Source of the DNA: Candidatus Limnocylindrales bacterium
GTDB lineage: Bacteria > Chloroflexota > Limnocylindria > Limnocylindrales > CSP1-4
Direction of reading: 5' to 3'
DNA length: 41,700 nucleotides
NCBI GenBank assembly: GCA_046704485.1
Contig: JBJKRU010000338.1
Location: forward strand, 1-41,700
Below are positions 1 through 17,131 of the stretch, piece by piece (position 1 is the stretch's first letter; each line of letters opens with the position of its first letter). The notes under the pieces were generated by a model. That model ran no database searches. It worked only from the letters and a program-made list of their open reading frames with translations, and had not been told where the DNA came from. Position numbers and translations under genes: made by a program.

Positions 1-1062
1 GTGTACGCGATCATCCTGGCCGGCGGAGGCGGCACCCGGTTGTGGCCGCTGTCGCGACCCGAGCGGCCGAAGCCCTTTCTCGCGCTGACCGGCGACCGGA
101 CGCTCCTGCAGATGACATGGGACCGGATCGTGCCGGGCCTGCTGACGCCCGCCGACGTGTTCGTGGTCACCGCGGCAGGCTACGCCGACCTGGTCCGCGA
201 GCAGCTCTCGTCGCTGCCGGCCGGCAACCTGGTCCTGGAGCCGATCGCCCGCAACACGGCGGCCGCGATCGCCCTGGCGACGGAGGCGATCGACCGCGCC
301 GACGACGAGGCAATGGTGGTGCTGCCGGCGGATCATCTGATCCGAGACGAGGCGCGGTTCCGCGAGCTGCTCGCCGACGCGGCCCGTCTGGCGGAGGCTG
401 TCCCGGCCCCGCTCGTCACCCTCGGCATCACCCCGACCGGCCCCGAGGCCGGGTTCGGCTACATCGGCGCGGGCGCAAGGCTGCCCGGCCCGGCCCAGGC
501 TGCCATGGTGGCGCGGTTCGTGGAGAAGCCCTCGGCGTCGACTGCGCGCGACCTGTTGTGCGGACGGGACCTCGTCGCGTGGAATGCCGGCATCTTCATC
601 TGGCGGCGTGATGCGATCCGGCAGGCCCTGGTGGCAAGCGCTCCGGACATCATGGCGGCCGTTCGAGACGGCCTGGCGAATGGCCAGACGCTGCTTGAGA
701 CCGCGTACGCGAGCGTCCGCGACGCGTCGATCGACTACGCGGTGATGGAGCCGGCGGCTGCCGACGGCCGCGTGGTGGTTCTCCGGGCCGAGGTGGGGTG
801 GAGCGATCTCGGGTCGTGGAGCGCCGATCGAGTCGTGCTGGTCGAGGCCGGCTCGGGGCACGGGGCGTCTCTGGGGGTCGTGGGGCGGGGACCGCGGAGG
901 GATGTCGACAGTTCGGGCGTCCTGGTGTTCGCCGATCGGCGCCTCGTGGTGACCATCGGGCTCCAGGACATCGTCATCATCGACACGGACGACGCCCTGC
1001 TGGTGGCCGCACCCGAGCGCGCTCAGGATGTCCGGGGCCTCGCGAAGGAGCTCGAAGCGTGA
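1..1062 (+). CDS. manC: Mannose-1-phosphate guanylyltransferase-like NDP-sugar pyrophosphorylase (short form, no cupin PMI domain)
   Basis: GTG at nt 1, 353 aa. The N-terminal loop ILAGGGGTRLWPLSRPERPKPF is typical of ManC/CpsB-type GDP-mannose pyrophosphorylases. VVLPADH and GITPTGPEAGFGYI are also present. It is a clear paralogue of the interrupted gene at 27895-29019. Confidence 0.85.
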   Translation: MYAIILAGGGGTRLWPLSRPERPKPFLALTGDRTLLQMTWDRIVPGLLTPADVFVVTAAGYADLVREQLSSLPAGNLVLEPIARNTAAAIALATEAIDRADDEAMVVLPADHLIRDEARFRELLADAARLAEAVPAPLVTLGITPTGPEAGFGYIGAGARLPGPAQAAMVARFVEKPSASTARDLLCGRDLVAWNAGIFIWRRDAIRQALVASAPDIMAAVRDGLANGQTLLETAYASVRDASIDYAVMEPAAADGRVVVLRAEVGWSDLGSWSADRVVLVEAGSGHGASLGVVGRGPRRDVDSSGVLVFADRRLVVTIGLQDIVIIDTDDALLVAAPERAQDVRGLAKELEA

Positions 1063-3494: not shown

Positions 3495-3508
3495 TGTTAT
3501 CGATACCA
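3495..3508. promoter_or_regulatory. Type-1 LacI-like operator (TGTTATCGATACCA) upstream of fucU-fucI
   Basis: 14-bp imperfect palindrome with a central CG that fits TGnTAnCGnTAnCA. The same pattern recurs at 7436, 7451, 8783, 20633, 20654 and 29102. It overlaps the candidate -10 hexamer. Confidence 0.6.
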
Positions 3509-3532: not shown

Positions 3533-3699
3533 GCCTCGTCGCAGGGCGCCTCGTCCAGCCCCGCCGACTCGGCAGCCGACCGCTGAAAGGACGTGGACGG
3601 GAACGGTTTCGTCATCGGCCAGCTGCATCGCCGGCGGTCGTGTGCACGTGAGGTCGTCCGCCGCGTCGCACAGTGGAGCGCCACCTGCCGGGATCGGGC

Positions 3700-4659
3700 C
3701 TATGCGACGACGCCGTCCGCGGGGAGTCGGGCGAGGAGCAACCGCGCGGGCTCCATGCCTCGGGGCGTGACGCGGTATCCACCGGCCGCTGCGGGCACGA
3801 CGGCGGTCTCCAGCGAACCTATCGGGAGCTCCCATCCCGGACCGCGCAGGGCCACCGATCCAGTCGCTGCCGTGACAACGTGCGGCGTGGCACCGTCGGA
3901 ATCGAGGTCGAGCGTCGTGCCGCCCTCGAGGTCGACGACGTCAAGCGCGAAGTGCTCGCCGGCGACCAGGCGATCCCTGCCCTGGTGTCGCTCCGGGAGG
4001 CGGAGCCGCTTGGCGGCACGCCTGGCGTCGACGCAGGCGAGCGCCTGCTCCGTGTGCAGCCCGCGCCCGGCTGTCGCAGGCCGACCCCAATCATCGACGC
4101 GGTAGGTGACGTCGGACGCCTGCTGGATCTCGTAGAGGAGCGCGCCCGGTCCGACCGCATGCAGGGATCCTGCCTCGACCAGGAAGGCATCGCCGGGGGA
4201 AACGGCGTGGTGCTGAAGGAGCGGCGCCACTGCACCGCTGCGGATCGATTGCCGCAGGCCCTCGACCGTTACGCCAACCTTGACGCCCAGGAGGAGTTCG
4301 GCGCCGGGCGCAGCCTCGAGGCAGTACCAGGCCTCCTCCTTGCCCACCGCCCCGGGGCCCTCCAGCGCGACCGCCATCGCATCGTCGGGGTGGACCTGCA
4401 CTGACAGCCAGTCCGCAGGGTCCAGCAGCTTGACGAGCAGCGGGAATGCGCCCGGCCTCGGCGCGGCCGTCCCGATCAGGGAAGCCCCGAACTCGCGAAC
4501 GAGGGAGCCGAGCTGCCGGCCAGCCACCTCGCCTGACGCGGCCGTCGCCGCGGGCCCGGTGAACCAAGCCTCGCCAACCGGCACGTCGCCGACTCGGCCA
4601 AGTCGGCACCCACCCCAGACACGGGGACGCAGCTCTGGGACGAGAAGGAAGGGCTCCAC
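3700..4659 (-). CDS. manA: Class I mannose-6-phosphate isomerase (cupin)
   Basis: 319 aa, GTG start. Motifs are RPRVWGG, LLVKLLDPADWLSVQVHPDD and EAGSLHAVGPGALLYEIQQASDVTYRVDDWGR. This matches the Bacillus-type short PMI pattern (SIQVHPDD ... HAIG.G ... SD.TYR.YD). Confidence 0.85.
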   Translation of the reverse strand: MEPFLLVPELRPRVWGGCRLGRVGDVPVGEAWFTGPAATAASGEVAGRQLGSLVREFGASLIGTAAPRPGAFPLLVKLLDPADWLSVQVHPDDAMAVALEGPGAVGKEEAWYCLEAAPGAELLLGVKVGVTVEGLRQSIRSGAVAPLLQHHAVSPGDAFLVEAGSLHAVGPGALLYEIQQASDVTYRVDDWGRPATAGRGLHTEQALACVDARRAAKRLRLPERHQGRDRLVAGEHFALDVVDLEGGTTLDLDSDGATPHVVTAATGSVALRGPGWELPIGSLETAVVPAAAGGYRVTPRGMEPARLLLARLPADGVVA

Positions 4660-4671
4660 CGGGCAGTCCGT

Positions 4672-5529
4672 CTAGAACCCGCGCAGTGCCGTGCTCGATC
4701 TGGCAGGCAACCCCCGATGAGGAGTACGGCGGAGCACGACGTACTCGATGTTCCTCGCGGCGCAGAACTCGCGCTTCTCCGGCTGGTCGCCGTCCTCGTT
4801 CACGACGTAGTACCGCGGCTGGATGTCGGCGATCTCCGGTTCGGCGTCCATCCATCCACTCCCGGATGAGATCAGGCAGCGGTGGACCTGGCGGACGGCG
4901 CCGACCATGTAGCGCCGCTCGTCCTCGCCCTGGAGTGGATGCCCGGGACCTTTGAGCAGTCCCACGTTGCGATCACTTCCGACCACGACGTAGAGGTCCC
5001 CCAGTGCGGATGCGTCCATGAAGAAGCGCACGTGTCCCGAATGGAGCCAGTCGAAGCAGCCGGTGACGACGACCCGTGGGCCATCGCCGGCTCGGGGCGG
5101 ACGCACCGGGGCCCCGTCGGCCTCCCATCCCCGGTAGCCTCGGAGGTCTGCCCGGCTGATGGCCCGAAGATCCCTTCCCCGATCCATCCATGCCTTCGAG
5201 AGGACGGGGTCGTCGTCCTCGTCCCGCACCACGAGTGTCTGGAACCTCGAAGCCAATCGGGCCACGTCAGAGCGAGCTTCAAGGTCGGTCACCCCGACGG
5301 TGTTGACGCAGCGGAGCGAGGCTGCGAGGAACCGGCGCTCAGTCTCCCCGAAGGTCGGCGGTCGTCCCGTTGTGCGCTCGACGAGCGAATCGGAGGAGAC
5401 CCGGACGTGGAGCGGCCCGAAGCGGGCGGCCTCCTGCAGGAAGCGCACATCGGACGAACTGAGGTTGTCCAAGCTGGCGGCGACCACCACCGAGGACCGC
5501 GGCCGTGCGAGGGCCGCAGGTGCGATCAC
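4672..5529 (-). CDS. Tandem cytidylyltransferase-fold protein (degenerate N-terminal copy plus intact HxGH C-terminal copy); sugar-phosphate nucleotidyltransferase candidate
   Basis: I place the start at GTG 5529, which makes a GTGA overlap with the upstream stop. The ORF-track ATG 5901 adds 124 codons that overlap the upstream gene out of frame. The C-terminal half has VVVTGCFDWLHSGHVRFF, the HxGH motif of TagD/RfaE-domain-II type enzymes. The N-terminal half (VVVAASLDNLSSSDVRFL) looks like the same fold without HxGH. Confidence 0.7.
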   Translation of the reverse strand: MIAPAALARPRSSVVVAASLDNLSSSDVRFLQEAARFGPLHVRVSSDSLVERTTGRPPTFGETERRFLAASLRCVNTVGVTDLEARSDVARLASRFQTLVVRDEDDDPVLSKAWMDRGRDLRAISRADLRGYRGWEADGAPVRPPRAGDGPRVVVTGCFDWLHSGHVRFFMDASALGDLYVVVGSDRNVGLLKGPGHPLQGEDERRYMVGAVRQVHRCLISSGSGWMDAEPEIADIQPRYYVVNEDGDQPEKREFCAARNIEYVVLRRTPHRGLPARSSTALRGF

Positions 5530-6332
5530 TGCAGCCGCACCGAGATCCGAAGCGAACCCGGCACTTCGCGCTCCGCCACAACAATCAGGTAGCCGCCACC
5601 GCACCCCGAGTACATCGCCCCTGCGCTCTCGGCCTGGTAGGCGGCGAGGAGTGCGCGCAGGTCCAATGTGATGGTCGGATGGGCATGAACGTGCGGCAGG
5701 ATCTCGTCCCAGCACAGAGCTGTCTCGTTGAACGACGCGCCCAGGGCGGCGGGGTCCCGGTTGAGGATGGCGTCGTAGCAGGCCTTGCCACTCGCGCTCA
5801 GCCGGGCGATCCAAGCAGGGTCCAGACGCTTGATGCCGAGTGGCGAGTACCCGGCGGGCCGCTGCATCACGGGGACCAGATGCAGGACTTCCTCGAGCCA
5901 CCGCGCAGCCGCCGGGTCACAGCTGTTCTCGACATGTGATGGGAAGAGGCCGCCTTCGACAGTGAAGTCGTAGTCGAGGCGGCTCACGCCCGGGTACACG
6001 AGGCCGCACATGTCCTGTGACCCGGAAGGCTCTGCGGCGCCCTCGTTCTCCGCGGCGTAGAGGATCCGGACCAGCTGTGCAGGGTCGCCAGGTGGAAGAG
6101 CATCTCCCCACAGTCGCTGGGCGACGGCACGGGTGCCCGTCGCCATGCCGCACCGGTCCATGTACCGGACATTGGGCTCCAGGGAGACGACGACCATCGA
6201 GCCCGGTGGCTCGGGGTTGAACTCGGACATCCACGGCTGGTCGATCCAGCCGCCCGCCAGCTGGAGGCGGTAAGGAAGCCGACCGATGGCGCTGGAGAGC
6301 GCCATCGAAGAACCGGTGACGGACTCCAGCAT
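5526..6332 (-). CDS. GHMP-family (HddA/fucokinase-like) sugar kinase-like protein with atypical ATP loop
   Basis: 268 aa. RLQLAGGWIDQP resembles RISFAGGGTD of COG2605-type kinases. GSQDMCGLVYPG resembles the GxQDQ motif. SGCGGGYLIVV matches GHMP motif 3. The PxGSGLGSS loop is not recognisable (CGMATGTRAV sits in its place). Confidence 0.6.
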   Translation of the reverse strand: MLESVTGSSMALSSAIGRLPYRLQLAGGWIDQPWMSEFNPEPPGSMVVVSLEPNVRYMDRCGMATGTRAVAQRLWGDALPPGDPAQLVRILYAAENEGAAEPSGSQDMCGLVYPGVSRLDYDFTVEGGLFPSHVENSCDPAAARWLEEVLHLVPVMQRPAGYSPLGIKRLDPAWIARLSASGKACYDAILNRDPAALGASFNETALCWDEILPHVHAHPTITLDLRALLAAYQAESAGAMYSGCGGGYLIVVAEREVPGSLRISVRLQ

Positions 6333-6335
6333 TCC

Positions 6336-7397
6336 TCAGCCCTCGACGACGCGCTTGCCCGCCTTTCGGAGGGCGTACTGCTCCTTGATCCAGTCGTAGG
6401 TGGCGGCCATGCCGGTCCGGAGCGGCGTGTTCGGCTCCCAGCCGAGGATCTCCTCGATGAACGTGTTGTCGCTATTCCGCCCGGCGACCCCCTTCGGGGC
6501 GTCGAGCTCGTAGGTGCGGTTCAGCGTCACCCCGGCCAGGTCCTCGACGATCGAGACGAGTTCGTTGATCGAGACGAGCTCCGACGAGCCCAAGTTGATC
6601 GGGGTGGCGGTCAGCTCGGGCGTGTGCATGATCAGATCGATGCCGTGCAGACAGTCATCGATGTAGCAGAAGCTGCGCGTCTGGGTGCCGTCGCCCCAGA
6701 TGGAGATCTCGAGGTTCCCGGAGTCTTGCGCCTCGATCACCTTGCGGCACATGGCGGCCGGCGCCTTCTCGCGGCCACCGAACCAGGTGCCGTTGGGGCC
6801 GTAGATGTTGTGGAAGCGCGCAATGTGCGTCTCGAGTCCGCGTTCCGCGGTGTACTCCTGGCACACCATCTCGCTGAACAGCTTCTCCCAGCCATAGCCG
6901 CGCTCGGCCATCGCGGGGTAGGCATCAGACTCCTTGAGGGCGATGGCTTCCGGCGTCTTCTGCAGGTCCGTGTTGTAGGCGCAGGCGGACGACGAGAAGA
7001 AGTACCGCTTGACGCCGGCCCGCCAGGCAGCCTCGGTCATGTTGGTGTTGATGAGCACGCTCCGCAGGCATTCGACGCGGAAGCGCTCGATGAAGCCCAT
7101 GCCGCCCATGTCGGCCGCCAGGTTGTAGACCTCGGTTGCCCCCTTGACCGCCTCCGTCGCGTTCTCCGCGATGGAGAGGTCGGCCGAGATCGACTCGACC
7201 CCCGGCACCACCACGTACCACTCCGGGAGCGGCTTCCGGTCGATTGCGCGGATCCGCGCGTAGCCCTGGTCCGCGAAGTACTTGGCGAGCGATCCACCGA
7301 TGAAGCCGCCTGCCCCAGTGATGACGATCAGTTCGTCCTTGTGCAAGCCGCGCGCAACGCTCGTCCCGGGGATGGTGTCGTTGAACTCCGTCGGCAT
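6336..7397 (-). CDS. gme: GDP-mannose 3,5-epimerase
   Basis: I place the start at ATG 7397, with SD GAAGGAAGG upstream, rather than ORF-track 7619. It is collinear by eye with plant GME. Shared blocks include ITGAGGFIG, NLAADMGGMGFI, FFSSSACAY, LKESDAYPA, YGWEKL, RFHNIYGPNGTWFGGREKAPAAMCRK, WGDGTQTRSF, GRNSDN and LGWEP. Confidence 0.9.
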   Translation of the reverse strand: MPTEFNDTIPGTSVARGLHKDELIVITGAGGFIGGSLAKYFADQGYARIRAIDRKPLPEWYVVVPGVESISADLSIAENATEAVKGATEVYNLAADMGGMGFIERFRVECLRSVLINTNMTEAAWRAGVKRYFFSSSACAYNTDLQKTPEAIALKESDAYPAMAERGYGWEKLFSEMVCQEYTAERGLETHIARFHNIYGPNGTWFGGREKAPAAMCRKVIEAQDSGNLEISIWGDGTQTRSFCYIDDCLHGIDLIMHTPELTATPINLGSSELVSINELVSIVEDLAGVTLNRTYELDAPKGVAGRNSDNTFIEEILGWEPNTPLRTGMAATYDWIKEQYALRKAGKRVVEG

Positions 7398-7435
7398 TGC
7401 GGTCCTTCCTTCGTCTGGGCGATAGCGGCTCAGGG

Positions 7436-7464
7436 TGCTAACGCTATCACTGATAACGCTAACA
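7436..7464. promoter_or_regulatory. Two tandem type-1 operators (TGCTAACGCTATCA and TGATAACGCTAACA), 15-bp register
   Basis: Sites at 7436-7449 and 7451-7464 both fit TGnTAnCGnTAnCA. They lie between the gme start (7397) and the LacI stop (7576). The distal site overlaps the candidate -10. Confidence 0.6.
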
Positions 7465-7484
7465 CACCGCGGCCAAGCTGTCGA
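7456..7484 (-). promoter_or_regulatory. Candidate promoter of the gme operon
   Basis: The minus strand reads TCGACA, a 17-nt spacer, then TAGCGT (a TAnnnT-type -10). Confidence 0.4.
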
Positions 7485-7575
7485 GAGGCCCGGGCAGGTC
7501 GTCTCGCACCGTCGGGAGCGATGGTCCACACGCCAACGCCGAATTGCTGGGGGCGCCGCAGTTCGACCGGCCGGT

Positions 7576-8643
7576 TCAGGAGAGCTCGGCGTCCAGCTCT
7601 CCGTCCCGGTCAGACGCAAGCGCGGCGAGGAGCGGGATGCCGCTCGACTTGCGGATCACGAGCTCCGTCGGGAGCACAACGTCCTGCGCCCGATGTCGGC
7701 CAGGGTGCTGGATCCGCTCCACGAGCAGCTCCACGGCACGCCGGCCCATCTCGAACGAAGGTTGCGAGACCACCGTGAGGAACGGGAACGTGACCATGGC
7801 AGACGGGAGATCGTCGAAGCCAACCACTGCCACGTCCTCCGGGACCCGGATACCCATGTCCTCGAGAGCGTGCAGCACCCCGATGGCGATGAAGTTGTTG
7901 CCAGCGAAGATCGCGGTCGGACGATCTCGCCGCGACATGGTCGCCCGAGCCATCGCGGCCCCGCCGTCGATGGTGAACTCGCCATGGATGACGTGGACGG
8001 ACCGGTTGGGCCCCGCCTCTCGCATCGCATCGCGGAAGCCCGCTGCTCGATCGACAGCGGTGGAGACGGAGCGGGGGCCGGTCAGGACCGCGGTGCGAAC
8101 GTGGCCCAGGGACGCGATGTAACGGCCCATCTCGTAGGCTCCGTGCCGAGAGTCCGTTCGGACGACGTCAACCGAGCCTCGGCGGATGCGCCGGTCGAGC
8201 ACCACCACGGGGGTGTCCTGCTCACGGCACTTCTGGATGACGCTGTCGCCAGACCCGGCCGGAACGATCAGGATCCCGTCGATCTGGCGCTGCAGCAGCA
8301 TCGTGACGTACCGCTCCTCCTCGTTGAGGTCCTCGTTGCTGTTGCCCATGATGACCATGAGCCCAGCCTCGTTGGCCGCGGCCTCGACCCCGTGGGCGAG
8401 CATGGTGAAGAACGGGTTGGTCAGGTCGGTGACGAGCAACGCGATGAGGTTGGTCCGCTTCGACCGCAGGCTGCGGGCAAGCACGTTCGGCATGTAGCCT
8501 GTCTGGGCGATCGCCTGTTCGACGCGCTGCCGGACATCGGCGCTGACGGGCCCCGTCCCGCGCACGACCCGGGACACGGTCATCGGCGAGACGCCCGCCA
8601 ACTTGGCTACATCAACGAGTCGCGCCATCAGCCTCCGCCCCAT
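7576..8643 (-). CDS. LacI-family transcriptional repressor (LacI-1)
   Basis: N-terminal HTH ARLVDVAKLAGVSPMTVSRVVRG and YMPNVLARSLRS, followed by a periplasmic-binding-fold sugar domain. The alternative ATG at 8628 is equally possible, and neither start has a well-spaced SD. Confidence 0.9.
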   Translation of the reverse strand: MGRRLMARLVDVAKLAGVSPMTVSRVVRGTGPVSADVRQRVEQAIAQTGYMPNVLARSLRSKRTNLIALLVTDLTNPFFTMLAHGVEAAANEAGLMVIMGNSNEDLNEEERYVTMLLQRQIDGILIVPAGSGDSVIQKCREQDTPVVVLDRRIRRGSVDVVRTDSRHGAYEMGRYIASLGHVRTAVLTGPRSVSTAVDRAAGFRDAMREAGPNRSVHVIHGEFTIDGGAAMARATMSRRDRPTAIFAGNNFIAIGVLHALEDMGIRVPEDVAVVGFDDLPSAMVTFPFLTVVSQPSFEMGRRAVELLVERIQHPGRHRAQDVVLPTELVIRKSSGIPLLAALASDRDGELDAELS

Positions 8644-8763
8644 CCTCGACCGTCCGCCAGCGTCTCGACGCGACCGGACGGCACCAACGCCACGGCAGGC
8701 AGTCTACGGGTCGTGCAGCCTCGTTCCGGCGCTGCTGGGGTGCGGCGGCGACCGAGAGGCCCG

Positions 8764-8791
8764 TTGACTGGCTCGGGGCATATGATAACGT
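8764..8791 (+). promoter_or_regulatory. Candidate promoter of the corrinoid methyltransferase operon
   Basis: TTGACT (8764-8769), a 16-nt spacer, then TAACGT (8786-8791). Confidence 0.45.
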
Positions 8792-8796
8792 AAACA
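8783..8796. promoter_or_regulatory. Type-1 operator (TGATAACGTAAACA) in the LacI-1 / methyltransferase divergent region
   Basis: It has one mismatch to TGnTAnCGnTAnCA and overlaps the candidate -10. Confidence 0.5.
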
Positions 8797-8955
8797 GTAC
8801 CCGGTCGGCGTGCACTTGTTCCACATCGGCCACCGCGTCCCGATCACACGAGCCCGCAACGCACCGAACGGCCCGGGCTGGACAAACGATGTACCGATTC
8901 ACGGCAGCGGCGGGCCTCCGGCCCCCGCTGCAGATGGGGCGGAGGTGAGCGGCCG

Positions 8956-10281
8956 ATGGGAGACGCAGGCAAGGATCGCGCGATCCTGCGCGAACTCGGG
9001 GCCCGTGTCGCCGAGCTCGCGGCGCTGCCGGTCCAGGCTGAGACGATAGCCGACTGGAAGGCGCTGAACGGCCTTCGGCCGATGCGGCCAATGGTGGCGA
9101 TCGACCAGCTGCCATGGCACGAGATGGCGTCGAGCCCCGAGCTCGAGACGCAGTGCGACGATCCGTTCAACCGCGGTGTCGAGATCGACCTGCGGCGGAT
9201 CCTGTACCGCTGGAACCACTTCCGTGCTGACATGGTGGTGGAGCCTGAATTCCTGATCCCCAAGGTCCTTCGCCTCGATGGGTTCGGCGTCGAGATGCAC
9301 GAGGAGACCGAGGCTGTCGACGCCGCGAACAACATCGTCTCGCACCACTTCTTCGACCAGCTCCAGCACGAGGACGACGCCGACAAGATCCGGACACCCA
9401 ACATCTGGCTCGACGAGGCTGAAACGGCGCGGATCGAGGCCCAAGCGCACGAGATCTTCGACGGCGTGCTGCCTGTCCGCCTGCAGGGATGGGTCCCCAG
9501 CACCAACCAGTGGCCCGGCCTCGAGTCCCAGCCAGCGACTCGGGCCCTGGTCCACGACTGGCCCGACGAGCTCCTCGCTGGCGGAGCGAACTTCTGGGAC
9601 ACGATCGAGTTCTGGCGGGGCGCCGACGCGATCCTCCTCGACCTCATGGACCGGCCTGACCACCTGCACCGGATCATCGACCGTCTCGTCACCGCCTATC
9701 TCGGCATGCTGGACCAGATGGAGGCCAAGGGCCTGCTCGGGCGCTCGATGTCCCTGGTGCACTGCACCCCAGCGTGGACCGATGAGCTCCCTCACGCGGG
9801 CTTCGACCCCGAGCGGCCGCGGGCAGAGGACCTGTGGACGATGGGCATGGCGCAGGTCTTCACTTCAACCTCGCCGAAGATGTTCCGCGAGTTCGAGGTC
9901 GAGCACACCAAGCGGTGGTTCGCCCGCTTCGGCCTCGGCTACTACGGATGCTGCGACGTGCTCGACCGGCACGTTGAGCACATCCGGGTGATCCCGAACG
10001 TGCGGAAGATCTCGATGTGCCCCTGGGCGAACGTCGAGCGCGGCGCCGACGGCATGGGGCACGACTTCGTCATGTCCCGCAAGCCCAACCCCGCGCACCT
10101 CGCCATGGACAGCTGGGATCCCGGCGCGGTCGAGAAGGAGCTGCGGGCGACTGCGGAGGCCTGCCGGCGAACCGGCACCAATGTCGAGTTCATCCTCAAG
10201 GACGTGAGCACGATCCGCTACCAGCCGCACCGGCTGGAGGAGTGGGTGGACGTCGCGATGAGGGTGGCGAGGGATTACTGA
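8956..10281 (+). CDS. URO-D-superfamily (MtaA/CmuA-like) methyltransferase-family protein, long form
   Basis: 441 aa, with GGAGG about 10 nt upstream. The C-terminal ~200 aa follow the URO-D-like barrel pattern (YYGCCDVLD, ISMCPWAN, SRKPNP, ILKDVSTI). The N-terminal half is not assignable by eye. Confidence 0.6.
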   Translation: MGDAGKDRAILRELGARVAELAALPVQAETIADWKALNGLRPMRPMVAIDQLPWHEMASSPELETQCDDPFNRGVEIDLRRILYRWNHFRADMVVEPEFLIPKVLRLDGFGVEMHEETEAVDAANNIVSHHFFDQLQHEDDADKIRTPNIWLDEAETARIEAQAHEIFDGVLPVRLQGWVPSTNQWPGLESQPATRALVHDWPDELLAGGANFWDTIEFWRGADAILLDLMDRPDHLHRIIDRLVTAYLGMLDQMEAKGLLGRSMSLVHCTPAWTDELPHAGFDPERPRAEDLWTMGMAQVFTSTSPKMFREFEVEHTKRWFARFGLGYYGCCDVLDRHVEHIRVIPNVRKISMCPWANVERGADGMGHDFVMSRKPNPAHLAMDSWDPGAVEKELRATAEACRRTGTNVEFILKDVSTIRYQPHRLEEWVDVAMRVARDY

Positions 10282-10322
10282 CAGATGCCCAGGCTGAATC
10301 GCCGTCACAAGGAGCCAACCCG

Positions 10323-10952
10323 ATGGTAGATCTGCAGGAGCTCGGCACGGCTATCGAGGCGGGCGACCGCGCGAGCGCCACCCGACTGACCCGAGAGGCA
10401 CTCGACAACGGGGCGCCGCCGGCGACGATCCTCGAGGCGATGACGGGCGCGATGGGTGTCATCGGCCGCAAGTTCCAGGACGGCGAGATCTTCGTCCCCG
10501 AGATGCTCATCAGCGCACGGGCCATGAAGGAGGCGACCGTCATCCTGGAGCCGGTGCTCGTGGAGGCTGGGATCCGTCCCGAGTACACCGCGGTGGTCGG
10601 CACTGTCGAGGGCGACCTGCACGACATCGGCAAGAACCTCGTCGGCATGATGCTCAAGGGCGCGGCGATCGAGGTTGTGGACCTCGGTGTGAACGTGACG
10701 GCCGATCGGTTCGTCGAGGCAGCGCGGGAGCATGACGCCCGCCTCATCGGCCTCAGCGCCCTGCTGACCACCACCATGCCCAACATGCGCAAGGTCGTCG
10801 AGGCGATCAAGGCGGCAGGTGTGGACGCCAAGGTGATGATCGGCGGCGCCCCGACGACACCAGAGTTCGCTGCCCAGATCGGGGCCGACGGCTATGCGCC
10901 GGATGCGGGCGCCGCCGTTGACCTCGCCAAGGCGCTGCTCGAGAGCAAGTAG
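10323..10952 (+). CDS. Cobalamin-binding corrinoid protein (MtaC/MtbC/MetH-B12-domain type)
   Basis: I place the start at ATG 10323, with AAGGAG upstream, rather than ORF-track 10017. A helical cap domain precedes a Rossmann-like domain. The Rossmann-like domain has all three signatures: GDLHDIGKN (DxHxxG), LSALL (SxL) and IGGAP (GG). Confidence 0.9.
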   Translation: MVDLQELGTAIEAGDRASATRLTREALDNGAPPATILEAMTGAMGVIGRKFQDGEIFVPEMLISARAMKEATVILEPVLVEAGIRPEYTAVVGTVEGDLHDIGKNLVGMMLKGAAIEVVDLGVNVTADRFVEAAREHDARLIGLSALLTTTMPNMRKVVEAIKAAGVDAKVMIGGAPTTPEFAAQIGADGYAPDAGAAVDLAKALLESK

Positions 10953-10972
10953 GGCCAGCTGGGAGTCGCGCG

Positions 10973-12166
10973 ATGGGGATGTTCGAGACGGTCGGCCGCA
11001 CCAGCGGCCTCGGGGAGCCACGCAAGGCGTCGACCCTGGCGAAGGTTGAGCGCCTCGCGAAGACCTACAGGCACGAGGAGGCGGATCGGGTCCCGATCAG
11101 CGATTTCTTCTGGGGCGGTTTCAAGGACCGGTGGCGCCGAGAACTCGGTCTGCCGGCCGACGCCGACCCGTACTACTACTACGACCTGGACCTGATTGTC
11201 ACGGTCCCGAACATGGACCCGCATATCCGGGCGTTCCAGACGATCCGCGAGGACGAAGAGGAAGTCGTCATCAGGACCGGCTTCGAGACGACGATCCGCA
11301 AGCGGTTCGACCTGCCGATGCCCGAGCAGATGAGCTGGGAGACGGACTCCATCGAGAAGCTTGAGGCGTTCGAGTTCGACGACCCCGCTGATCCCCGTCG
11401 CTACTTCGAGGCAGGCGACAACCAGATTGCCGGTGTTGGCGACGGGTTCGAGCGCAACAGCCCGCCGTGGGTCGACACGGTCCGATCCCTCCGCCCTGAT
11501 TTCGCCGTCTACGGCAGCATCACCGAGTCATCGGAGATCTGCACCCGCCTCCTGGGCCAGCTGAACACCCTGATGTGGATCGGCGAGTACCCGGAGCGGT
11601 TCGGCGAGCAGCTACTGCGGATCGGCGAGTTCAGCTATGAGGTTGCCAAGGCCCAGATCGAAGCGGCCGATGGCCTCCTTGACGGCATGGTGATCTGGGG
11701 AGATGTCGCCTACCGCAAGAGCCTCTTCATGGCCCCCGACTACTGGCGCCGCTACTACAAGCCGACGGTGGCGCGCATCATCGCGTTGTCGCACGACCAC
11801 GGGCTGCCAGTCATGTACCACGGATGCGGCAATGCGAACGCAATCCTCGAGGACATGATCGAGATCGGCTTGGACGGCTACAACCCGCTGGAGGCAAAGG
11901 CCGACCTCGACGTCGTGACACTGCGCGAACGGCTTGGGCACCGGCTCACGTTCTGCGGCAACAGCGACATCCGCGTCTGGGAGCGAGGCGACAAGGCTGA
12001 GGTCCGGCACGAGGTGCTTCATCGTCTGCGCGCTGCCGAGGGCGGCGGGTACGTCTTCATGTCCGACCACTCGGTGGCCTCGGATGTATCGGGCGAGATG
12101 TACGACTACATTGTCAGGCTTGTGCGCGAGCACGGCGACTACCCTCTCGCCCTGCCTGCCGAGTAG
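10973..12166 (+). CDS. URO-D-superfamily methyltransferase (MtaA/CmuA-like)
   Basis: 397 aa. VMYHGCGNANAILEDMIEIGLDGYNPLE, FCGNSD and GGGYVFMSDHSV follow the MtaA/URO-D C-terminal pattern. GGGAG lies 7 nt upstream. Confidence 0.75.
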   Translation: MGMFETVGRTSGLGEPRKASTLAKVERLAKTYRHEEADRVPISDFFWGGFKDRWRRELGLPADADPYYYYDLDLIVTVPNMDPHIRAFQTIREDEEEVVIRTGFETTIRKRFDLPMPEQMSWETDSIEKLEAFEFDDPADPRRYFEAGDNQIAGVGDGFERNSPPWVDTVRSLRPDFAVYGSITESSEICTRLLGQLNTLMWIGEYPERFGEQLLRIGEFSYEVAKAQIEAADGLLDGMVIWGDVAYRKSLFMAPDYWRRYYKPTVARIIALSHDHGLPVMYHGCGNANAILEDMIEIGLDGYNPLEAKADLDVVTLRERLGHRLTFCGNSDIRVWERGDKAEVRHEVLHRLRAAEGGGYVFMSDHSVASDVSGEMYDYIVRLVREHGDYPLALPAE

Positions 12167-12410
12167 GCCCCTGGCGGTCCCCTTCTCTGCCCGGAACGCC
12201 GCATTCTCAGCGGGCCGGGCGCTCGCTTGCCGGCGCCTGGCACGGCTGGCGGGTCAGGGGAAACGAGATTGATGTTCCGACGTCGCGTGCCGCCAAGAGG
12301 TTGACCGCCGCGCCGTTCGAGGGTCGATCACGGGCGCTGTGGGCCTCCAAGACCTCTGTCGGCTGTGCTGCTGTGAGCAGCGACGCGCCATGTGCGCGAG
12401 ACAGAGCACT

Positions 12411-12425
12411 GAACAATCGTTTATC
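12411..12425. promoter_or_regulatory. Weak type-2 operator-like site (GAACAATCGTTTATC) upstream of the AKR operon
   Basis: It shares the core ACAAwCGTTT with the sites at 27807 and 29068, but its dyad symmetry is poor. It overlaps a possible GAGACA / 18 nt / TATCCT promoter (12398-12427). Confidence 0.3.
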
Positions 12426-12481
12426 CTTCTCGTGATGCAGCGCCGACCGGGTGGAGCGCAAGCAGATCGGAGGTCGCATGG

Positions 12482-13546
12482 GTGAGTCGGCATGAGGACG
12501 CCGACGGTCGAGCGATGAACCCGGCCTTCGAGCTTGTCCCGCTCGCCCAGTCGGGCCTTCAGGTCACAAGACTGGGGTTCGGGGCTGCCACGATCGGCGG
12601 GCTCTTCGACGTCGTCACCGACGAGGGTGCGGTTGCCGCGGTCGACCGCGCCTACGATCTGGGGATCCGGTACTTCGACGTAGCGCCCCTCTACGGCTAC
12701 GGCCAGGCCGAACGCCGGGTCGGCGCCGCGCTCGAGGCTCGGCCGCGGGACTCATTCGTCCTGTCGACGAAGGTCGGTCGTCGGTTGGTCCCGCGCGACC
12801 GGATCACCACGGAGATGGACGTCGACCTGCAAGCGGTCGGCGGCAAAGAGGACTTCTACTACCCCGAGGGGACGCCGCCCGTCCGGCCAGTGTTCGACTA
12901 CAGCTTCGACGGCACCATGCGGTCGGTCGAGGAGAGCCTCGGGCGACTCGGCATGGACCGGGCCGACATCCTGCTGATTCACGATCCGGACAACCACGTC
13001 GACGCCGCGATGCGGGGAGCCTACCCGGCCCTCCGGCGTCTCCGGGACGAGGGGGTGGTCCGGGCCATCGGCGTCGGCATGAACCAGGCGACCCTGCTCG
13101 CTCGATTCGCCGAGCGCTGCGACCTCGATCTCGTCTTGGTCGCCGGTCGATACACGCTCCTCGAACATGACGCGCTCGATGAACTGCTGCCGATCTGCGC
13201 CCGCCGCGGGACCGCCGTTGCCGTGGCAGGCGTCTTCAACAGCGGGATCCTCGCCAACCCGCGCCCAGGCAGTCGGTTCAACTACGTTCCCGCTGACGGA
13301 GCACTCGTGGAACGGGCCGAGCGACTTGCCTCCATCGCAGCGTCTCACGGCGTGTCACTCAAGGCCGTCGCTCTCCAGTTTGCGATTGCCCACCCAGCGG
13401 TCTCCTGCATGGTGGCGGGGGTGCGCACGGTTGCACAGCTGGAGGACTACCCGGCGTTGTTCGCCGAGCGCATTCCTGCCGACCTCTGGGCCGAGCTGAA
13501 GACGGAGCGCCTCCTTCCGGCCGAGGCTCCTGTCCCTGTCGGCTGA
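12482..13546 (+). CDS. Aldo-keto reductase, L-fucose/L-galactose (D-threo-aldose) 1-dehydrogenase-like
   Basis: Motifs are GFGAATIGG, DVAPLYGYGQAERRVG, LSTKVGR and IHDPD. The GTG at 12482 has GGAGG 8 nt upstream. ATG 12515 is an alternative start. Confidence 0.8.
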   Translation: MSRHEDADGRAMNPAFELVPLAQSGLQVTRLGFGAATIGGLFDVVTDEGAVAAVDRAYDLGIRYFDVAPLYGYGQAERRVGAALEARPRDSFVLSTKVGRRLVPRDRITTEMDVDLQAVGGKEDFYYPEGTPPVRPVFDYSFDGTMRSVEESLGRLGMDRADILLIHDPDNHVDAAMRGAYPALRRLRDEGVVRAIGVGMNQATLLARFAERCDLDLVLVAGRYTLLEHDALDELLPICARRGTAVAVAGVFNSGILANPRPGSRFNYVPADGALVERAERLASIAASHGVSLKAVALQFAIAHPAVSCMVAGVRTVAQLEDYPALFAERIPADLWAELKTERLLPAEAPVPVG

Positions 13547-13623
13547 TCATTGAGCGGCCCCACCAGGGCCAGAAGCGACCACAGATCGTCCCGGCCATTC
13601 CGGGAGCGGCACAGGAGGACACG

Positions 13624-14514
13624 GTGCGCCTGATCTCGCTGGAGGGGCCGCACGGGGCACCTCAGCTGGGCGTTGTTGTCGACGGCCGGGTGCTGGCGGC
13701 GGTGGACTTGCTGCCTGACGCGCCGCCAGACATGGCCGGGCTGCTGGCTGGAGACCCGGACCTCTTGGTGGAGCTTGCAGCCGCGGCGACCGCAGCCGGC
13801 CCAGAGGCTGGCGTGCAGCTCGACGCCGTCCGTTTGCTCGCGCCCGTCCCGGCGCCGGGGAAGATCGTGGCGATCGGCCGGAACTACGCGGACCACGCGG
13901 CGGAGGAAGGCGCAGATGCGCCGGGAGCGCCGCTGATCTTCGCGAAGTTCCCGAGCTCCGTCATCGGGCCCCGCGGCGAGATTCGCTGGGATCCTTCCCT
14001 GACAGCCCAGGTCGACTACGAAGCAGAGCTTGCCGTCGTGATCGGCCGATCGGCCTCCAGGGTCGCAGAGCGGGAGGCGCTGGACTACGTGCTCGGCTAC
14101 ACGTGCCTGAACGACGTGACCGCACGTGATCTCCAGTTCGGCGACGGCCAATGGGTGCGCGGCAAGTCGCTGGACACGTTCTGCCCGATGGGCCCCTGGC
14201 TTGTGACACCGGATGAACTCGGCAACCCCGATGACCTGCGGATCACCTGCACGCTCAACGGCGAAGAGGTGCAGGACGACCGCACGTCATCGATGTACCA
14301 CGGCGTCGCACGACTCATTAGCTACTGCTCGCAGGCGTTCACGCTCATGCCGGGTGACGTCATCGCGACGGGGACCCCGGCCGGGGTCGGGATCTTCCGG
14401 ACACCGCCACTCCTTTTGACCGACGGCGATGTGGTCGTCGTGTCGATCGAGGGCATCGGCGAGCTGGTCAACACGTGCCGTTTCGAGCGCGCGCAGGAGG
14501 CAACACTGGCATGA
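13624..14514 (+). CDS. Fumarylacetoacetate-hydrolase-family protein (2,4-diketo-3-deoxy-6-deoxyhexonate hydrolase candidate)
   Basis: GTG start with SD CAGGAGGA. Motifs are GRNYADHAAE, DYEAELAVVIGR, GYTCLNDVTARD and GDVIATGTPAGVG. Confidence 0.9.
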   Translation: MRLISLEGPHGAPQLGVVVDGRVLAAVDLLPDAPPDMAGLLAGDPDLLVELAAAATAAGPEAGVQLDAVRLLAPVPAPGKIVAIGRNYADHAAEEGADAPGAPLIFAKFPSSVIGPRGEIRWDPSLTAQVDYEAELAVVIGRSASRVAEREALDYVLGYTCLNDVTARDLQFGDGQWVRGKSLDTFCPMGPWLVTPDELGNPDDLRITCTLNGEEVQDDRTSSMYHGVARLISYCSQAFTLMPGDVIATGTPAGVGIFRTPPLLLTDGDVVVVSIEGIGELVNTCRFERAQEATLA

Positions 14515-15512
14515 CCGAGTCACCCGTCGAGCGCTTCTTGGTCACCGGCGCACTCGGCTGCATTGGGGCGTGGACCGTGCGTGACCTGGCTCGGGAAGGT
14601 GTGCCAGTTGTCGCCTTCGACGTCGCGGCATCCCCGCGCCGTGTGCGCAACCTGTGCACAGACGAGGAGTTGGAGCGAATCACCTTCGTCACCGGCGACA
14701 TCACGGAGCTGTCCTCGGTGGAGTCGGCCCTGGACGATCACGGGATCACGAACGTCATCCACCTTGCCGCTCTCCAGGTGCCGTTCTGCCGTGCTGATCC
14801 TGTGCTCGGTGCACGGGTGAATGTCGTGGGCACCGTGAACGTGCTGGAGGCGATACGACGCCGCAGCGACCGGATCCGGCAATTCGTGTACACGGGCTCG
14901 GTGGGCATGTTCGACGCCGCTGACGCCGACCCGGGCACTGGGCGACTTGAGGCGGACGCAGCTGCCCATCCCGTCAACCACTACGGCGTCTACAAGCAGG
15001 CGAACGAGGGCAACGCCCGGGTGTATTGGCTTGACAACGGCGTCTCTTCGATCGGATTGCGGCCGATGACGGTGTACGGGCCGGGCCGGGACCAGGGGCT
15101 GACCAGCACGCCGTCGAAGGCCATCCTCGCCGCCCTCCTCGGTCAGCCGATCACGATCGGCTTCAGCGGGAGGACGCTGTTCCAGTACGCGGACGATGTG
15201 GCGCGGACTCTGATCATGGCGAGCCGCGCCGCATTGCGGGGGGCCAACACGTTCAACCTTGGCGGCGAGCTGGTGGATCTGCACGAATTCGTGCACTACG
15301 TGGAGGAACAGGTTCCGGGCAGCGAAGGCCTCATCGCCGTGGACGGCGCACCACTGCCCTTCCCCGAGGACATCTCAGCTGAAGGCTTGGCGGCGGTCGG
15401 ACCTGCCCCGGTAAGGCCGATCCGCGAAGGCATCGCCGAGACGATCGCCTTCTTCCGCCGCCTGATGGATTCCGGTCGGCTGGTGCCGGTCGAGCACGGT
15501 CTCCAACCCTGA
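14511..15512 (+). CDS. Extended SDR (NAD-dependent epimerase/dehydratase family)
   Basis: ATG 14511 overlaps the FAH stop (ATGA). Motifs are VTGALGCIGAW (GxxGxxG) and YGVYK (YxxxK). Confidence 0.85.
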   Translation: MTESPVERFLVTGALGCIGAWTVRDLAREGVPVVAFDVAASPRRVRNLCTDEELERITFVTGDITELSSVESALDDHGITNVIHLAALQVPFCRADPVLGARVNVVGTVNVLEAIRRRSDRIRQFVYTGSVGMFDAADADPGTGRLEADAAAHPVNHYGVYKQANEGNARVYWLDNGVSSIGLRPMTVYGPGRDQGLTSTPSKAILAALLGQPITIGFSGRTLFQYADDVARTLIMASRAALRGANTFNLGGELVDLHEFVHYVEEQVPGSEGLIAVDGAPLPFPEDISAEGLAAVGPAPVRPIREGIAETIAFFRRLMDSGRLVPVEHGLQP

Positions 15513-15548: not shown

Positions 15549-16610
15549 CTACGTCCGGCGAACCCGGAACGACCGGCGCGGCGGGGGAGCCGTCGAAGCT
15601 CGGATCATCAGCTCGGGGGCCGGCTCTGCGACCACGAGGTCCGCGGGACGTTCGCCCTTGAGCCGCTGCGTCAGGAGCGCCACGGCCGTCTCCCCGAGCT
15701 CTCGCATCGGCATCCTGACAGTGGTCAGGGGTGGCCAGCACGTCTCCGCGAGCCACGCGTCATGGATGGCCACGATTGACAACTGATCAGGGACGGCTAG
15801 GCGGAGCTCGTGAGCCGCCTGCACCACGCCCATCGCGGCCACGAGATTGGACACCACGACGGCCGTCGGACGGCGGCGTCCGGAGAGGAGGGTGATTGCC
15901 GCCTCGTGGCCGTTGGCCGCCGAGTAGCCGGCTCTGAGCACCCAACCCGACCGCCGGCGCATGCCCGCTGCGTTGAGTGCCTGGACGAACCCGATCTCAC
16001 GATGGCGGCCCGTGTAGCTGTGCTCATCGCCACCGATAAGCCCCAAGTCTCGATGACCCAGGCCGAGCAGGTGCTCGGCGGCGACGCGACCGCCGGCGGC
16101 ATCGTCGAGCACGACGGACCCGCGTCTTGCGCCACGGGAGTTCACAAGCACGAAGGGGACCTTGTCGCGCATGATCTCGGTGAACTCGCGGAGGTCGATC
16201 TCGTCGCTCCTCTGGACGAGGAACCCGTCGACACGACCCTGGCCAACGAGCTCTCGCAGAAGGTGCCCGCCGGGCTTGAGCCGCTCGAACTTGCCGATGA
16301 GCAGCTGGAGCCCCGCCTTCTCGCTCGCGATCTCGACGCCGCCGATCAACTCCTCGAACACGGGGGTGACAAGCTGGGGGACGATGAGGCAGATCGCGGA
16401 GGCTCGGGCGGTCCGAAGGGAACGGCCTGCCGAACTCGGCGTGTAGTCCAGCACGCGAGCCGCATCCTGGATCCGCTTCCGGGTTTCGTCTCGAGCACGG
16501 AGGACGGGATCTCCATTCAGCTCGCGAGAGACGACGGAGACCGAGACGCCGGCCAGTCGCGCGACATCACGCAGGGTCGCCCGCGCGTGTGACCGTCCCG
16601 GCGATCTCAT
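15549..16610 (-). CDS. LacI-family transcriptional repressor (LacI-2)
   Basis: HTH ATLRDVARLAGVSVSVVSRELNG and YTPSSAGRSLRT, followed by a sugar-binding domain. I place the start at ATG 16610 rather than 16643. Confidence 0.9.
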   Translation of the reverse strand: MRSPGRSHARATLRDVARLAGVSVSVVSRELNGDPVLRARDETRKRIQDAARVLDYTPSSAGRSLRTARASAICLIVPQLVTPVFEELIGGVEIASEKAGLQLLIGKFERLKPGGHLLRELVGQGRVDGFLVQRSDEIDLREFTEIMRDKVPFVLVNSRGARRGSVVLDDAAGGRVAAEHLLGLGHRDLGLIGGDEHSYTGRHREIGFVQALNAAGMRRRSGWVLRAGYSAANGHEAAITLLSGRRRPTAVVVSNLVAAMGVVQAAHELRLAVPDQLSIVAIHDAWLAETCWPPLTTVRMPMRELGETAVALLTQRLKGERPADLVVAEPAPELMIRASTAPPPRRSFRVRRT

Positions 16611-16759
16611 CGTGGGCCTCCATCGAGCCGTGACCCATGGCATGGGAACGGCCCCTCGGGGTCATGAGCGGCCGCGCGCCACCAATCTATCCGGTGCGCG
16701 ACCCGGACGCGTCATTGGTGTTCCGGCCGCCACTCGGGTCTGTCTCGGGCAACGCGCAG

Positions 16760-17131
16760 CTAGGCCTCGTGAAACACCTCGGGGATCGCCGTCCACCACT
16801 CCCCGGGTCGCACGTCCCGTGTCTGAAGCTGGCACGGCTTGCACACGTCCCACCACCGCTGGGTCTCGGGGTCCTCGGCCATGCGCGCCATGTCGGCCTC
16901 GTAGTCGGAGCCCACGTATTCGTAGTAGCTGAACAGCAGGTCGCCGTACCGGTAGATCGAGTAGTTGCGAATGTTGCAGGCGGTGATCATCGCCAGCACA
17001 CCCGGCCAGACCGCAGCATGCAGGGCGAGGTACTCCTCGGCATGCTCCGGCCGGAGCCCGATGACGCTCGCATATCGCTGGACGACAGTCGTGCCTGGCA
17101 GGGGGACGCCCGCCGGGCCTTGCTCGCTCAT
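16760..17131 (-). CDS. rhaM: L-rhamnose mutarotase
   Basis: 123 aa matching the RhaM/YiiL pattern (EYLALHAAVWPGV, IRNYSIY, DPETQRWW). Its start overlaps the permease stop (ATGA). Confidence 0.9.
   Translation of the reverse strand: MSEQGPAGVPLPGTTVVQRYASVIGLRPEHAEEYLALHAAVWPGVLAMITACNIRNYSIYRYGDLLFSYYEYVGSDYEADMARMAEDPETQRWWDVCKPCQLQTRDVRPGEWWTAIPEVFHEA

Follow-up and report, generated by a model that had tools for sequence, protein, structure and literature searches.

In the aryl methyl ether O-demethylases of acetogens and Desulfitobacterium, anaerobes that live on lignin monomers, a small corrinoid carrier made of a cap and a B12-binding domain is encoded beside methyltransferases of the uroporphyrinogen decarboxylase (URO-D) superfamily. 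The OdmB and VdmB O-demethylases are members of this superfamily (PMC10418091). We describe an operon with a similar composition, and presumably a similar O-demethylation logic, in a 41,700-nucleotide (nt) stretch of soil Chloroflexota DNA (Candidatus Limnocylindrales bacterium, contig JBJKRU010000338.1, positions 1 to 41,700), referred to here as the window. Its three genes, designated A, B and C (8956-12166, + strand), are predicted to encode a corrinoid methyl-transfer module belonging to a sugar regulon, a reading to which we assign a probability of about 0.85. That the module serves to remove methyl groups from a methylated (deoxy)hexose, one of the L-fucose, L-rhamnose or L-galactose type, is a proposal whose substrate is taken from context, and the odds for it are about even. 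The operon departs from the aryl-ether systems in its position within a LacI sugar regulon of soil Chloroflexota, in the aliphatic sugar ether presumed to be its substrate, in the lack of an acceptor-side methyltransferase (MT-II) or an activase in the window, and in gene A, whose family has no sequence relation to known methyltransferases. Closer to those systems is a related locus, L099, which has a pterin-binding MT-II and methylenetetrahydrofolate reductase (MTHFR); loci labelled in this way are stretches from relatives that were compared for the neighbourhoods of A or C.

The MtaABC methanol:coenzyme M system of Methanosarcina shares the chemical problem, namely that alkoxide or hydroxide leaves poorly and has to be activated by zinc. 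C can be aligned with MtaA (4ay7) across an HxCGN motif, B resembles carriers of the MtaC type, and related loci join C and B to a true MtaB-family protein. Unlike that system, the window has no MtaB, C falls far under the MtaA and CmuA cut-offs, coenzyme M metabolism is not expected, and the context is one of RhaT, RhaM and fucose genes. The MtgBCD and split MetH systems of Ruegeria pomeroyi and Phaeobacter inhibens are modular corrinoid systems that operate in aerobes; their helpers are RamA-like and DUF1638 proteins, and homocysteine accepts the methyl group (PMC12478193; 10.1101/192971). In L151 and L153 the same helpers stand beside C together with a homocysteine methyltransferase, and genes for DUF1638 and homocysteine methyltransferase are found beside A across L007, L054 and L062, although the donor enzyme of the described systems is an MttB-superfamily glycine betaine methyltransferase, whereas here there are URO-D-fold proteins in sugar loci.

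In its presumed job, the removal of a methyl ether that blocks sugar catabolism, the operon resembles the cytochrome P450 (P450) 6-O-methyl-D-galactose demethylase of marine Bacteroidota (PMC6292453, PMC10033563), and the literature agrees with an initial annotation of this DNA that the described sugar O-demethylation uses a P450 (PMC6292453). A P450 gene lies beside C in L137, and in L178 another adjoins a URO-D gene, two to four genes away from A. The proteins are unrelated, however, and the P450 route is oxidative, needs O2 and releases formaldehyde, whereas the Co(I) methyl transfer proposed here would conserve the methyl group. Type 1 mlp clusters also combine widespread, uncharacterised MtaA-like proteins of the URO-D superfamily with a corrinoid protein and no tetrahydrofolate methyltransferase (Kountz and Balskus, PMC10418091). 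These clusters are from obligate anaerobes, have a RACE activase and encode Mlp2 and Mlp3, which are about 30% identical to coenzyme M methyltransferases, and they are proposed to act on methyl-sulfur or methyl-selenium compounds (PMC10418091). The operon here has a sugar context, no RACE gene in the window and a much weaker similarity to MtaA; it falls outside the type 1 mlp clusters and is compared with them by description. Overall, the operon has a layout that works like those of the aryl-ether O-demethylases and MtaABC but misses several of their defining features, with no MT-II or activase in the window, C below the cut-offs and A outside the families. We found no report of corrinoid-dependent sugar O-demethylation, or of either the A or the C family, in the literature searched, although this is weak evidence given the many subscription papers outside it.

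The A-B-C operon and its products

Genes A (8956-10281, 441 aa), B (10323-10952, 209 aa) and C (10973-12166, 397 aa) are open reading frames (ORFs) on the + strand, placed head to tail in one direction as the initial annotation had them. The gap between A and B is 41 nt, with AAGGAG positioned 7 nt ahead of the B start codon, and the gap between B and C is 20 nt, with GGGAG ahead of the C start. A sequence scan found no terminator-like site between the three genes, which form a single tight operon. The window has a G+C content of about 69%, and the closest relatives of gene A are in soil 'Chloroflexia' metagenome-assembled genomes (MAGs) at 76-82% amino-acid identity. No riboswitch, for cobalamin or otherwise, was found with Rfam in the window or in the leader of A.

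The B protein matches PF02607 (cap; 3e-18) and PF02310 (B12-binding; 3e-30), and GDLHDIGKN, LSALL and IGGAP, corresponding to the DxHxxG, SxL and GG signatures, are readable in its translation; the cap domain and the three cobalamin signatures previously ascribed to the 209-aa protein are thus all present. Its top solved relative is the Moorella protein 1y80 (5.6e-49), followed by MttC, MetH and MtmC. The nearest named models are those of MtgC, MtbC and MtaC, and because B scores under the cut-offs of all NCBIfam equivalogs it lies outside the named carrier families. By its sequence B is a complete corrinoid carrier of the methyltransferase type, with a cap and a predicted His-on B12-binding domain. 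Two other identities for B, as a CarH-like photoreceptor and as a subunit of an adenosylcobalamin mutase, were rejected, as both give scores far weaker than those of methyltransferase carriers and B is flanked by URO-D-fold genes; for the photoreceptor, a DNA-binding domain is also lacking.

The C protein has a PF01208 (URO-D) match of 4e-20 confined to residues 171-387, its C-terminal ~220 residues. A fold search with its AlphaFold model (predicted local distance difference test, pLDDT, 85.6) matches HemE and MtaA with template-modelling (TM) scores of about 0.7, and the URO-D-type label given earlier to C is upheld by both match and fold. C is not HemE (18.3 bits against 303 for TIGR01464), and its context is sugar catabolism, not heme. 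It also fails the MtaA/CmuA family models (TIGR01463, NF040654), scoring 30.7 bits against 235.4 for TIGR01463 and 32.8 against 400 for MtaA_Meth. The YHGCGN sequence of C aligns with LHICGN of MtaA 4ay7, which contains the zinc-binding His-x-Cys, and both H283-G-C285-G and S-D365-H366-S are invariant in 26 orthologues. We regard C as a candidate methyl-(deoxy)hexose:corrinoid methyltransferase with a putative zinc site.

The A protein is quite different, with no sequence matches in Pfam, NCBIfam or the PDB, even when the PDB is searched with a 37-sequence family profile, and no similarity in Pfam to PF02574 or PF00809. Profile searches of the three products thus bear out the cobalamin assignment for B (both B12 models) and the URO-D assignment for C, but return nothing for A. 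Comparison of the A and C families with hhalign found no similarity (probability 2.7%), and A is therefore not a recognisable paralogue of C. The AlphaFold model of A is confident (pLDDT 92.5; predicted TM score 0.91), and Foldseek with this model retrieves HemE, MtaA and then MetE (E 1e-7 to 1e-3, TM 0.5-0.6, ~11% identity), such that the URO-D-type label for the 441-aa protein stands by fold but not by sequence. A collection clustered at 90% contains 1280 matches to the A family, and no source gives any of them a functional name; at 50% identity there are 2971 clusters (E<=1e-3). Residues C332 and C333 (in the motif YYGCC) and C403 do not vary, and H269 and C270 hardly do. By its model, A is a remote URO-D/MtaA-like barrel, and it is a candidate substrate:corrinoid methyltransferase. 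The models of A and C both have a four-stranded beta-meander in the N-terminal half (by DSSP, residues 99-132 of A and 89-122 of C), which might be a shared substrate lid.

Regulon and gene neighbourhoods

A LacI-family repressor gene (7576-8643, - strand; PF00356 and Peripla_BP_1/3) is divergent from the operon, as initially described; its best NCBIfam matches are to the RbsR, CytR and PurR types, all under cut-offs. In front of A is a predicted 14-bp LacI-type operator, TGATAACGTAAACA (8783-8796), which was identified by its match to TGnTAnCGnTAnCA and overlaps the -10-like hexamer of a candidate promoter (8764-8791, + strand) read from the sequence as TTGACT (8764-8769), a 16-nt spacer and TAACGT (8786-8791). 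The hexamers and spacer reported for this promoter are there, but a simple sigma-70 consensus scan of 8500-12600 gave no promoters, and since the TTGACT/TAACGT pair fails the scan, the promoter is a candidate only. With one mismatch or fewer, TGnTAnCGnTAnCA occurs seven times in the window (3495, 7436, 7451, 8783, 20633, 20654 and 29102) against 0.11 expected, and none of 100 shuffles reaches seven; by the gene map, all of the sites are intergenic. Besides the site ahead of A, there is one predicted operator upstream of fucU-fucI (3495-3508; FucU and FucI by Pfam), two in tandem upstream of a GDP-mannose-epimerase-like (gme) operon (7436-7464; epimerase Pfam match), two in tandem upstream of a sugar ATP-binding cassette (ABC) transporter operon encoding a solute-binding protein, two permeases and RhaM (20633-20667), and one between an NTP-transferase gene and the lut genes (29102-29115; LUD and Fer4 Pfam matches). 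The same motif is therefore present at every gene group for which a common operator had been claimed. An operator-like site about 280 bp upstream of A is also found in three related MAGs (L001-L003). A common palindromic operator before co-regulated operons, together with a nearby LacI gene, is what characterises a LacI-type regulon, and we infer on sound computational grounds that the operon belongs to this one. A second LacI-family regulator (15552-16661, - strand; PF00356 and Peripla_BP_3) is an alternative binder of the operator.

The neighbourhoods of C were surveyed in 80 metagenome loci, with neighbours identified by phmmer; a carrier profile hidden Markov model gave no extra C locus. 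Orthologues of C that are 62-86% identical occur in Planctomycetota, Verrucomicrobiota and Hydrogenedentota, besides the Chloroflexia relatives. RhaT is near C in 34 of the 80 loci and RhaM in 37, both downstream and mostly within 1-2 kb, and a GH29 fucosidase is near in 12. In one annotated arrangement an AraC gene is divergent from C-RhaT-RhaM with a GH29 fucosidase and a sulfatase beside them, and in another C-RhaM lies near a GH78 rhamnosidase. The linkage to sugar genes looked for among homologues is thus recurrent for C, with RhaT/RhaM, fucosidases and a rhamnosidase as its partners, and C appears to be the component tied to deoxy-hexose uptake.

A corrinoid protein like B is near C in 16 of the 80 loci, adjoining it in most and otherwise one to two genes away, and three layouts are seen. 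The first is A-B-C, with RhaM directly after C and fucI next door in L001 and L002. The second, in L099, is LacI-GFO-B-C-URO-D paralogue-MTHFR-pterin-binding methyltransferase, which is the canonical O-demethylase layout with a tetrahydrofolate MT-II. The third is C-B-MtaB-family protein (L136, L145, L151, L153), with DUF6580 between these genes in L151 and L153 and AraC upstream in L153; L151 and L153 also contain the RACo activase, DUF1638 and a homocysteine S-methyltransferase, and in L136, L145 and L153 the layout is followed by RhaT-RhaM and then a fatty-acid-desaturase-like oxygenase. Given these fuller loci in which C is joined by a carrier, corrinoid-dependent methyl transfer would be the natural function for C.

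Some features of the C loci stand apart. The MtaB-family genes, from uncultured bacteria, are full length (L136, 11888-13273; L153, 12490-13875; Pfam E 1e-169; also in L145 and L151), and an MtaB homologue inside a deoxy-sugar uptake locus is unexplained. A di-iron membrane protein of the fatty-acid-desaturase family ends C-RhaT-RhaM operons in at least six loci (L133, L136, L137, L145, L152 and L153). In L137 (12151-14562) a desaturase-family protein is fused to Rieske and NAD-binding reductase domains, and the P450 gene is directly upstream of C. These oxygenases may be oxygen-dependent demethylases or hydroxylases for the same substrates.

For A, 80 genome loci were examined, one per species, from Chloroflexota, Armatimonadota, Planctomycetota, Poribacteria, Latescibacterota, Hydrogenedentota, Verrucomicrobiota/Lentisphaerota and Bacillota. 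A URO-D paralogue is within 10 kb of A in about 20 of them; these neighbours are diverse (20-40% identity), and nearly all keep the HxC motif. All-against-all clustering of the ORFs in the 80 loci found no universal neighbour, with URO-D paralogues alone recurring (16 loci), and when 95 immediate neighbours were pooled for a Pfam scan, the matches were scattered and glycan-related (URO-D 6; GH95, GH2 and sulfatase 2 each). Several loci place A with components of corrinoid systems. L007 (Acidobacteriota-like) has a pterin-binding methyltransferase, DUF1638, B and URO-D on one strand, and on the other B and A (overlapping by 4 nt) followed by a sugar ABC transporter and LacI. In L062 (Poribacteria) the order is B, homocysteine S-methyltransferase, GHMP sugar kinase and A; in L054 it is homocysteine methyltransferase, URO-D, B, DUF1638 and a second B, with A further along; and in L057 A is followed by B. 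Sugar genes are prominent in L046 (Hydrogenedentota), where an FGGY kinase, an aldolase, a FucI-like isomerase, a TIM-barrel protein, A, GH172, URO-D, ThuA, a C-like protein and RhaM are found together. The L178 operon (= L005; Chloroflexia; 3541-10356), with an ABC transporter, a short-chain dehydrogenase/reductase (SDR), the P450, URO-D, KDPG aldolase, an alcohol dehydrogenase, a PfkB kinase and A, hints at the catabolism of a methylated sugar acid such as 4-O-methyl-glucuronate. Some other contexts of A (L088, L089) look unrelated to either sugars or methyl transfer.

Two further groups of A loci are of separate interest. In Clostridia metagenome contigs (L082-L087), AraC, A and URO-D lie beside iolB/iolD/iolE/iolG-like genes, LarA and DUF1638, and in L082 the A gene is divergent from these and is followed by URO-D and a GHL6/fucosidase-like protein; that the set serves the demethylation of O-methyl-inositols such as pinitol is pure speculation. 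In Anaerolineae, a GH38 mannosidase and a fusion of an aldo-keto reductase with a 4Fe-4S ferredoxin (L091, 7191-8366, Pfam) precede A, and a URO-D protein follows it, together with a DUF386 protein in L090; L010 and L013 have an ORF of the same size and no annotation in the place of the reductase (8658-9836). The Fe-S aldo-keto reductase could be an alternative electron source for cobalt reduction.

The neighbourhoods also bear on how the work is divided among the proteins. Genes for RACo occur in L142, L151 and L153, and those for DUF1638 in L007, L054, L082, L151, L153 and L164. Split corrinoid methionine synthases of aerobic Roseobacters have a genetic requirement for DUF1638 and RamA-like proteins, and these helpers are co-induced with the betaine demethylase MtgBCD (10.1101/192971; PMC12478193), so such corrinoid systems work in aerobes. 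The recurrence of these helpers beside A and C supports a corrinoid system. The operon had been annotated as a donor-side methyltransferase (MT-I), a corrinoid protein and an MT-II, and this assignment is not established; A lies outside URO-D by sequence, and related clusters bring acceptor enzymes of their own. Because such enzymes occur with C and a carrier in L099, L151 and L153, and with A in L007 and L062, A and C would both be donor-side proteins served by one carrier. For A this is the simplest reading, since it is found with canonical acceptor-side enzymes in L007 and L062 and has its own carrier in L007. The real MT-II and activase would then be encoded outside the window, in which six-frame searches with phmmer found neither an activase nor a pterin-binding methyltransferase gene, in agreement with their initially reported absence.

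Proposed function and alternative explanations

We propose that the LacI-repressed A-B-C operon would provide the donor side of a corrinoid-dependent methyl transfer. A methyl sugar would be imported by the ABC transporter and anomerised by RhaM/FucU, after which C, with zinc at its MtaA-like HxC site, would activate the ether oxygen; A is probably a second donor-side enzyme, for another substrate or position. Attack on the methyl group by Co(I) on B would then yield methyl-Co(III)-B and the free sugar, which would enter the neighbouring isomerase and non-phosphorylative pathways. An acceptor-side methyltransferase from outside the window would restore Co(I), and in related clusters this role would fall to the pterin-binding methyltransferase with MTHFR or to homocysteine S-methyltransferase. 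A RACo/RamA-type activase from elsewhere, possibly with DUF1638, would repair oxidised Co(II). The gene order, domains, folds, common operator motif and comparative associations behind this scheme are observed, whereas we infer which substrate is used, which way the methyl group moves, that C has a zinc site, and what A and C each do.

A number of observations weigh against this scheme. Cleavage by Co(I) is harder for an aliphatic methyl ether than for an aryl ether. The similarity of C to the MtaA, MtbA and CmuA models is weak and partial (27-37 bits, with NCBIfam cut-offs of 235-600), and the distal third zinc Cys of MtaA is presumably replaced in C by the invariant S-D-H-S (Asp-His). The phmmer searches of the six-frame window found no genes for RACo, DUF6580, MtaB, homocysteine methyltransferase, pterin-binding methyltransferase or MTHFR; for DUF1638, there is no Pfam match among the window ORFs scanned, and no search dedicated to it was made. 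The A-B-C triad is restricted to one Chloroflexota clade, A and C being a few kb apart in two more loci, and A is near C in 3 of the 80 C loci. A corrinoid protein lies within 10 kb of A in 9 of 80 loci, representing five independent lineages, and most A genes are without one; where there are at least 4 kb on both sides, a carrier is within 4 kb in 4 of 33 A loci and 6 of 23 C loci, and of the 12 C loci that extend at least 9 kb to either side, only 3 have a corrinoid protein. A is 47-55% identical across phyla and its contexts are very varied, which a generic role would fit as well. Finally, the oxygenases beside C, the P450 and the di-iron desaturase-like proteins, could be the actual demethylases in those loci.

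A first alternative, which we consider unlikely, is that A and/or C are not corrinoid methyltransferases but URO-D-fold enzymes for some other deoxy-hexose step, with B in this lineage paired with only one of them or acting as a regulatory or storage binder of cobalamin. It would be in keeping with the majority of A and C homologues having no corrinoid gene within 10 kb, with the C-RhaT-RhaM operons that exist alone, and with the absence of a sequence link between A and any methyltransferase. It sits poorly with the recurrence beside C of corrinoid proteins, pterin-binding methyltransferase, MTHFR, homocysteine methyltransferase, RACo, DUF1638 and MtaB-like proteins, and of a smaller set beside A (corrinoid protein, pterin-binding or homocysteine methyltransferase, DUF1638), as well as with the MtaA HxC motif kept in C and the tight A-B-C spacing. 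To our knowledge, the URO-D fold has no characterised activities other than heme decarboxylation and corrinoid methyl transfers.

The machinery could instead be the one proposed here with a donor other than a sugar, such as methanol, a methoxy-aromatic, a methylamine or betaine, or a methylthiol, with the sugar regulon being incidental or reflecting a need for one-carbon (C1) or methionine supply. The models nearest to B (MtgC, MtbC and MtaC types) and the MtaB-family genes adjoining C in L136, L145, L151 and L153 lean in this direction, as do the URO-D-family methyltransferases already described that act on thiols and on aryl ethers (PMC10418091; 10.1101/548461). Yet the operator is common to five sugar-gene regions, RhaT/RhaM accompany C in 34-37 of 80 loci, C is also tied to fucosidases and a rhamnosidase, and the neighbours of A include sugar kinases, glycoside hydrolases and sugar ABC transporters. 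We saw no MttB-superfamily gene in the window, and A, B and C are all below every equivalog cut-off. We judge the chance of a non-sugar donor to be small.

It is improbable, in our view, that the trio is complete in the window as a sugar-regulated split methionine synthase or methyl sink, with one of A and C on the acceptor side and the other on the donor side. A possible form of this alternative makes A the conserved acceptor-side partner of variable URO-D donor enzymes, given that A is conserved while its URO-D neighbours are diverse paralogues, and that A occupies the slot held by pterin-binding or homocysteine methyltransferases in other clusters of C and B. The pattern of Cys270 and Cys332-Cys333 in A may recall the Cys ... 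Cys-Cys zinc site of MetH and BHMT, and enzymes of the MtaA type act on the acceptor side in methanogens. The presence of canonical acceptor enzymes beside A in L007 (pterin-binding) and L062 (homocysteine) would nevertheless make A redundant there, A in L007 has its own corrinoid protein apart from the URO-D and corrinoid pair, and A has no similarity to PF02574 or PF00809.

An equally long shot is a self-contained 'corrinoid ether hydrolase' in which one URO-D-fold enzyme would methylate Co(I)-B from the O-methyl sugar and A, in the slot of the MtaB-family protein, would reverse the MtaB reaction (methyl-Co(III) + water -> methanol + Co(I)), so that a tetrahydrofolate or thiol acceptor would be needless, which would account for none being encoded here, and A and C would be two new, phylum-spanning families of cobalamin-dependent sugar demethylases from polysaccharide degraders (Planctomycetota, Verrucomicrobiota, Chloroflexota and Poribacteria).

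Surrounding sugar genes and implications

The remainder of the window is rich in genes of sugar catabolism. The fucose and lactate genes, recognised by Pfam and tblastn, encode FucI, FucU, an aldo-keto reductase, an FAH-family hydrolase, an SDR, a UxaA-type dehydratase, amidohydrolase_2, LutB and LutC, a set which we take to fit a non-phosphorylative L-fucose route ending in pyruvate and L-lactate. Four stretches (12482-15512, 21727-24220, 26925-27827 and 29712-32065) carry the aldo-keto reductase, FAH, SDR, UxaA-type, amidohydrolase_2 and LutB/LutC genes and a CoA-transferase III, and look like a non-phosphorylative L-fucose (or L-galactose) pathway leading into lactate oxidation, beside the FucI/FucU route. 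The final gene of the ABC transporter operon encodes a RhaM-family mutarotase (16769-17083, - strand; tblastn 55% identity over 110 aa, E 2e-34). A rhamnose module, consisting of a rhamnulokinase-like FGGY kinase and a rhamnose-type class-II aldolase/SDR fusion behind a DeoR regulator (33793-38524), adjoins the fucose regulon, yet has no copy of the 14-bp operator.

The epimerase operon (3703-7400, - strand) encodes a GDP-mannose-3,5-epimerase-like SDR, an unassigned 268-aa protein, a cytidylyltransferase-like protein and a type-I phosphomannose isomerase, and a ManC-like nucleotidyltransferase gene is at the start of the window (1-1062), past fucI-fucU from this operon. The epimerase operon is under two copies of the operator of the catabolic genes (7436-7464). 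Perhaps it is a nucleotide-sugar route from L-galactose or GDP-L-galactose to mannose-6-phosphate, which would be unusual within a catabolic regulon.

Sugars that carry methyl ethers, such as 2-O-methyl-fucose, 3-O-methyl-rhamnose, 6-O-methyl-galactose and 4-O-methyl-glucuronate, are closed to ordinary sugar catabolism, and the removal route described so far is the O2-dependent P450 for one sugar (PMC6292453). As a three-protein system, the A-B-C operon is open to direct testing. If the proposed function is true, two large unannotated families would gain a role. The A family comprises about 3000 clusters at 50% identity and is not covered by a Pfam model, while the clade of C is now annotated as 'uroporphyrinogen decarboxylase'; both A and C occur in the main polysaccharide-degrading phyla. 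A cobalamin route would need no oxygen and would retain the methyl group, either as a C1 unit or as methionine, and it would tie the supply of vitamin B12 to the turnover of glycans in soils, oceans and sponges.

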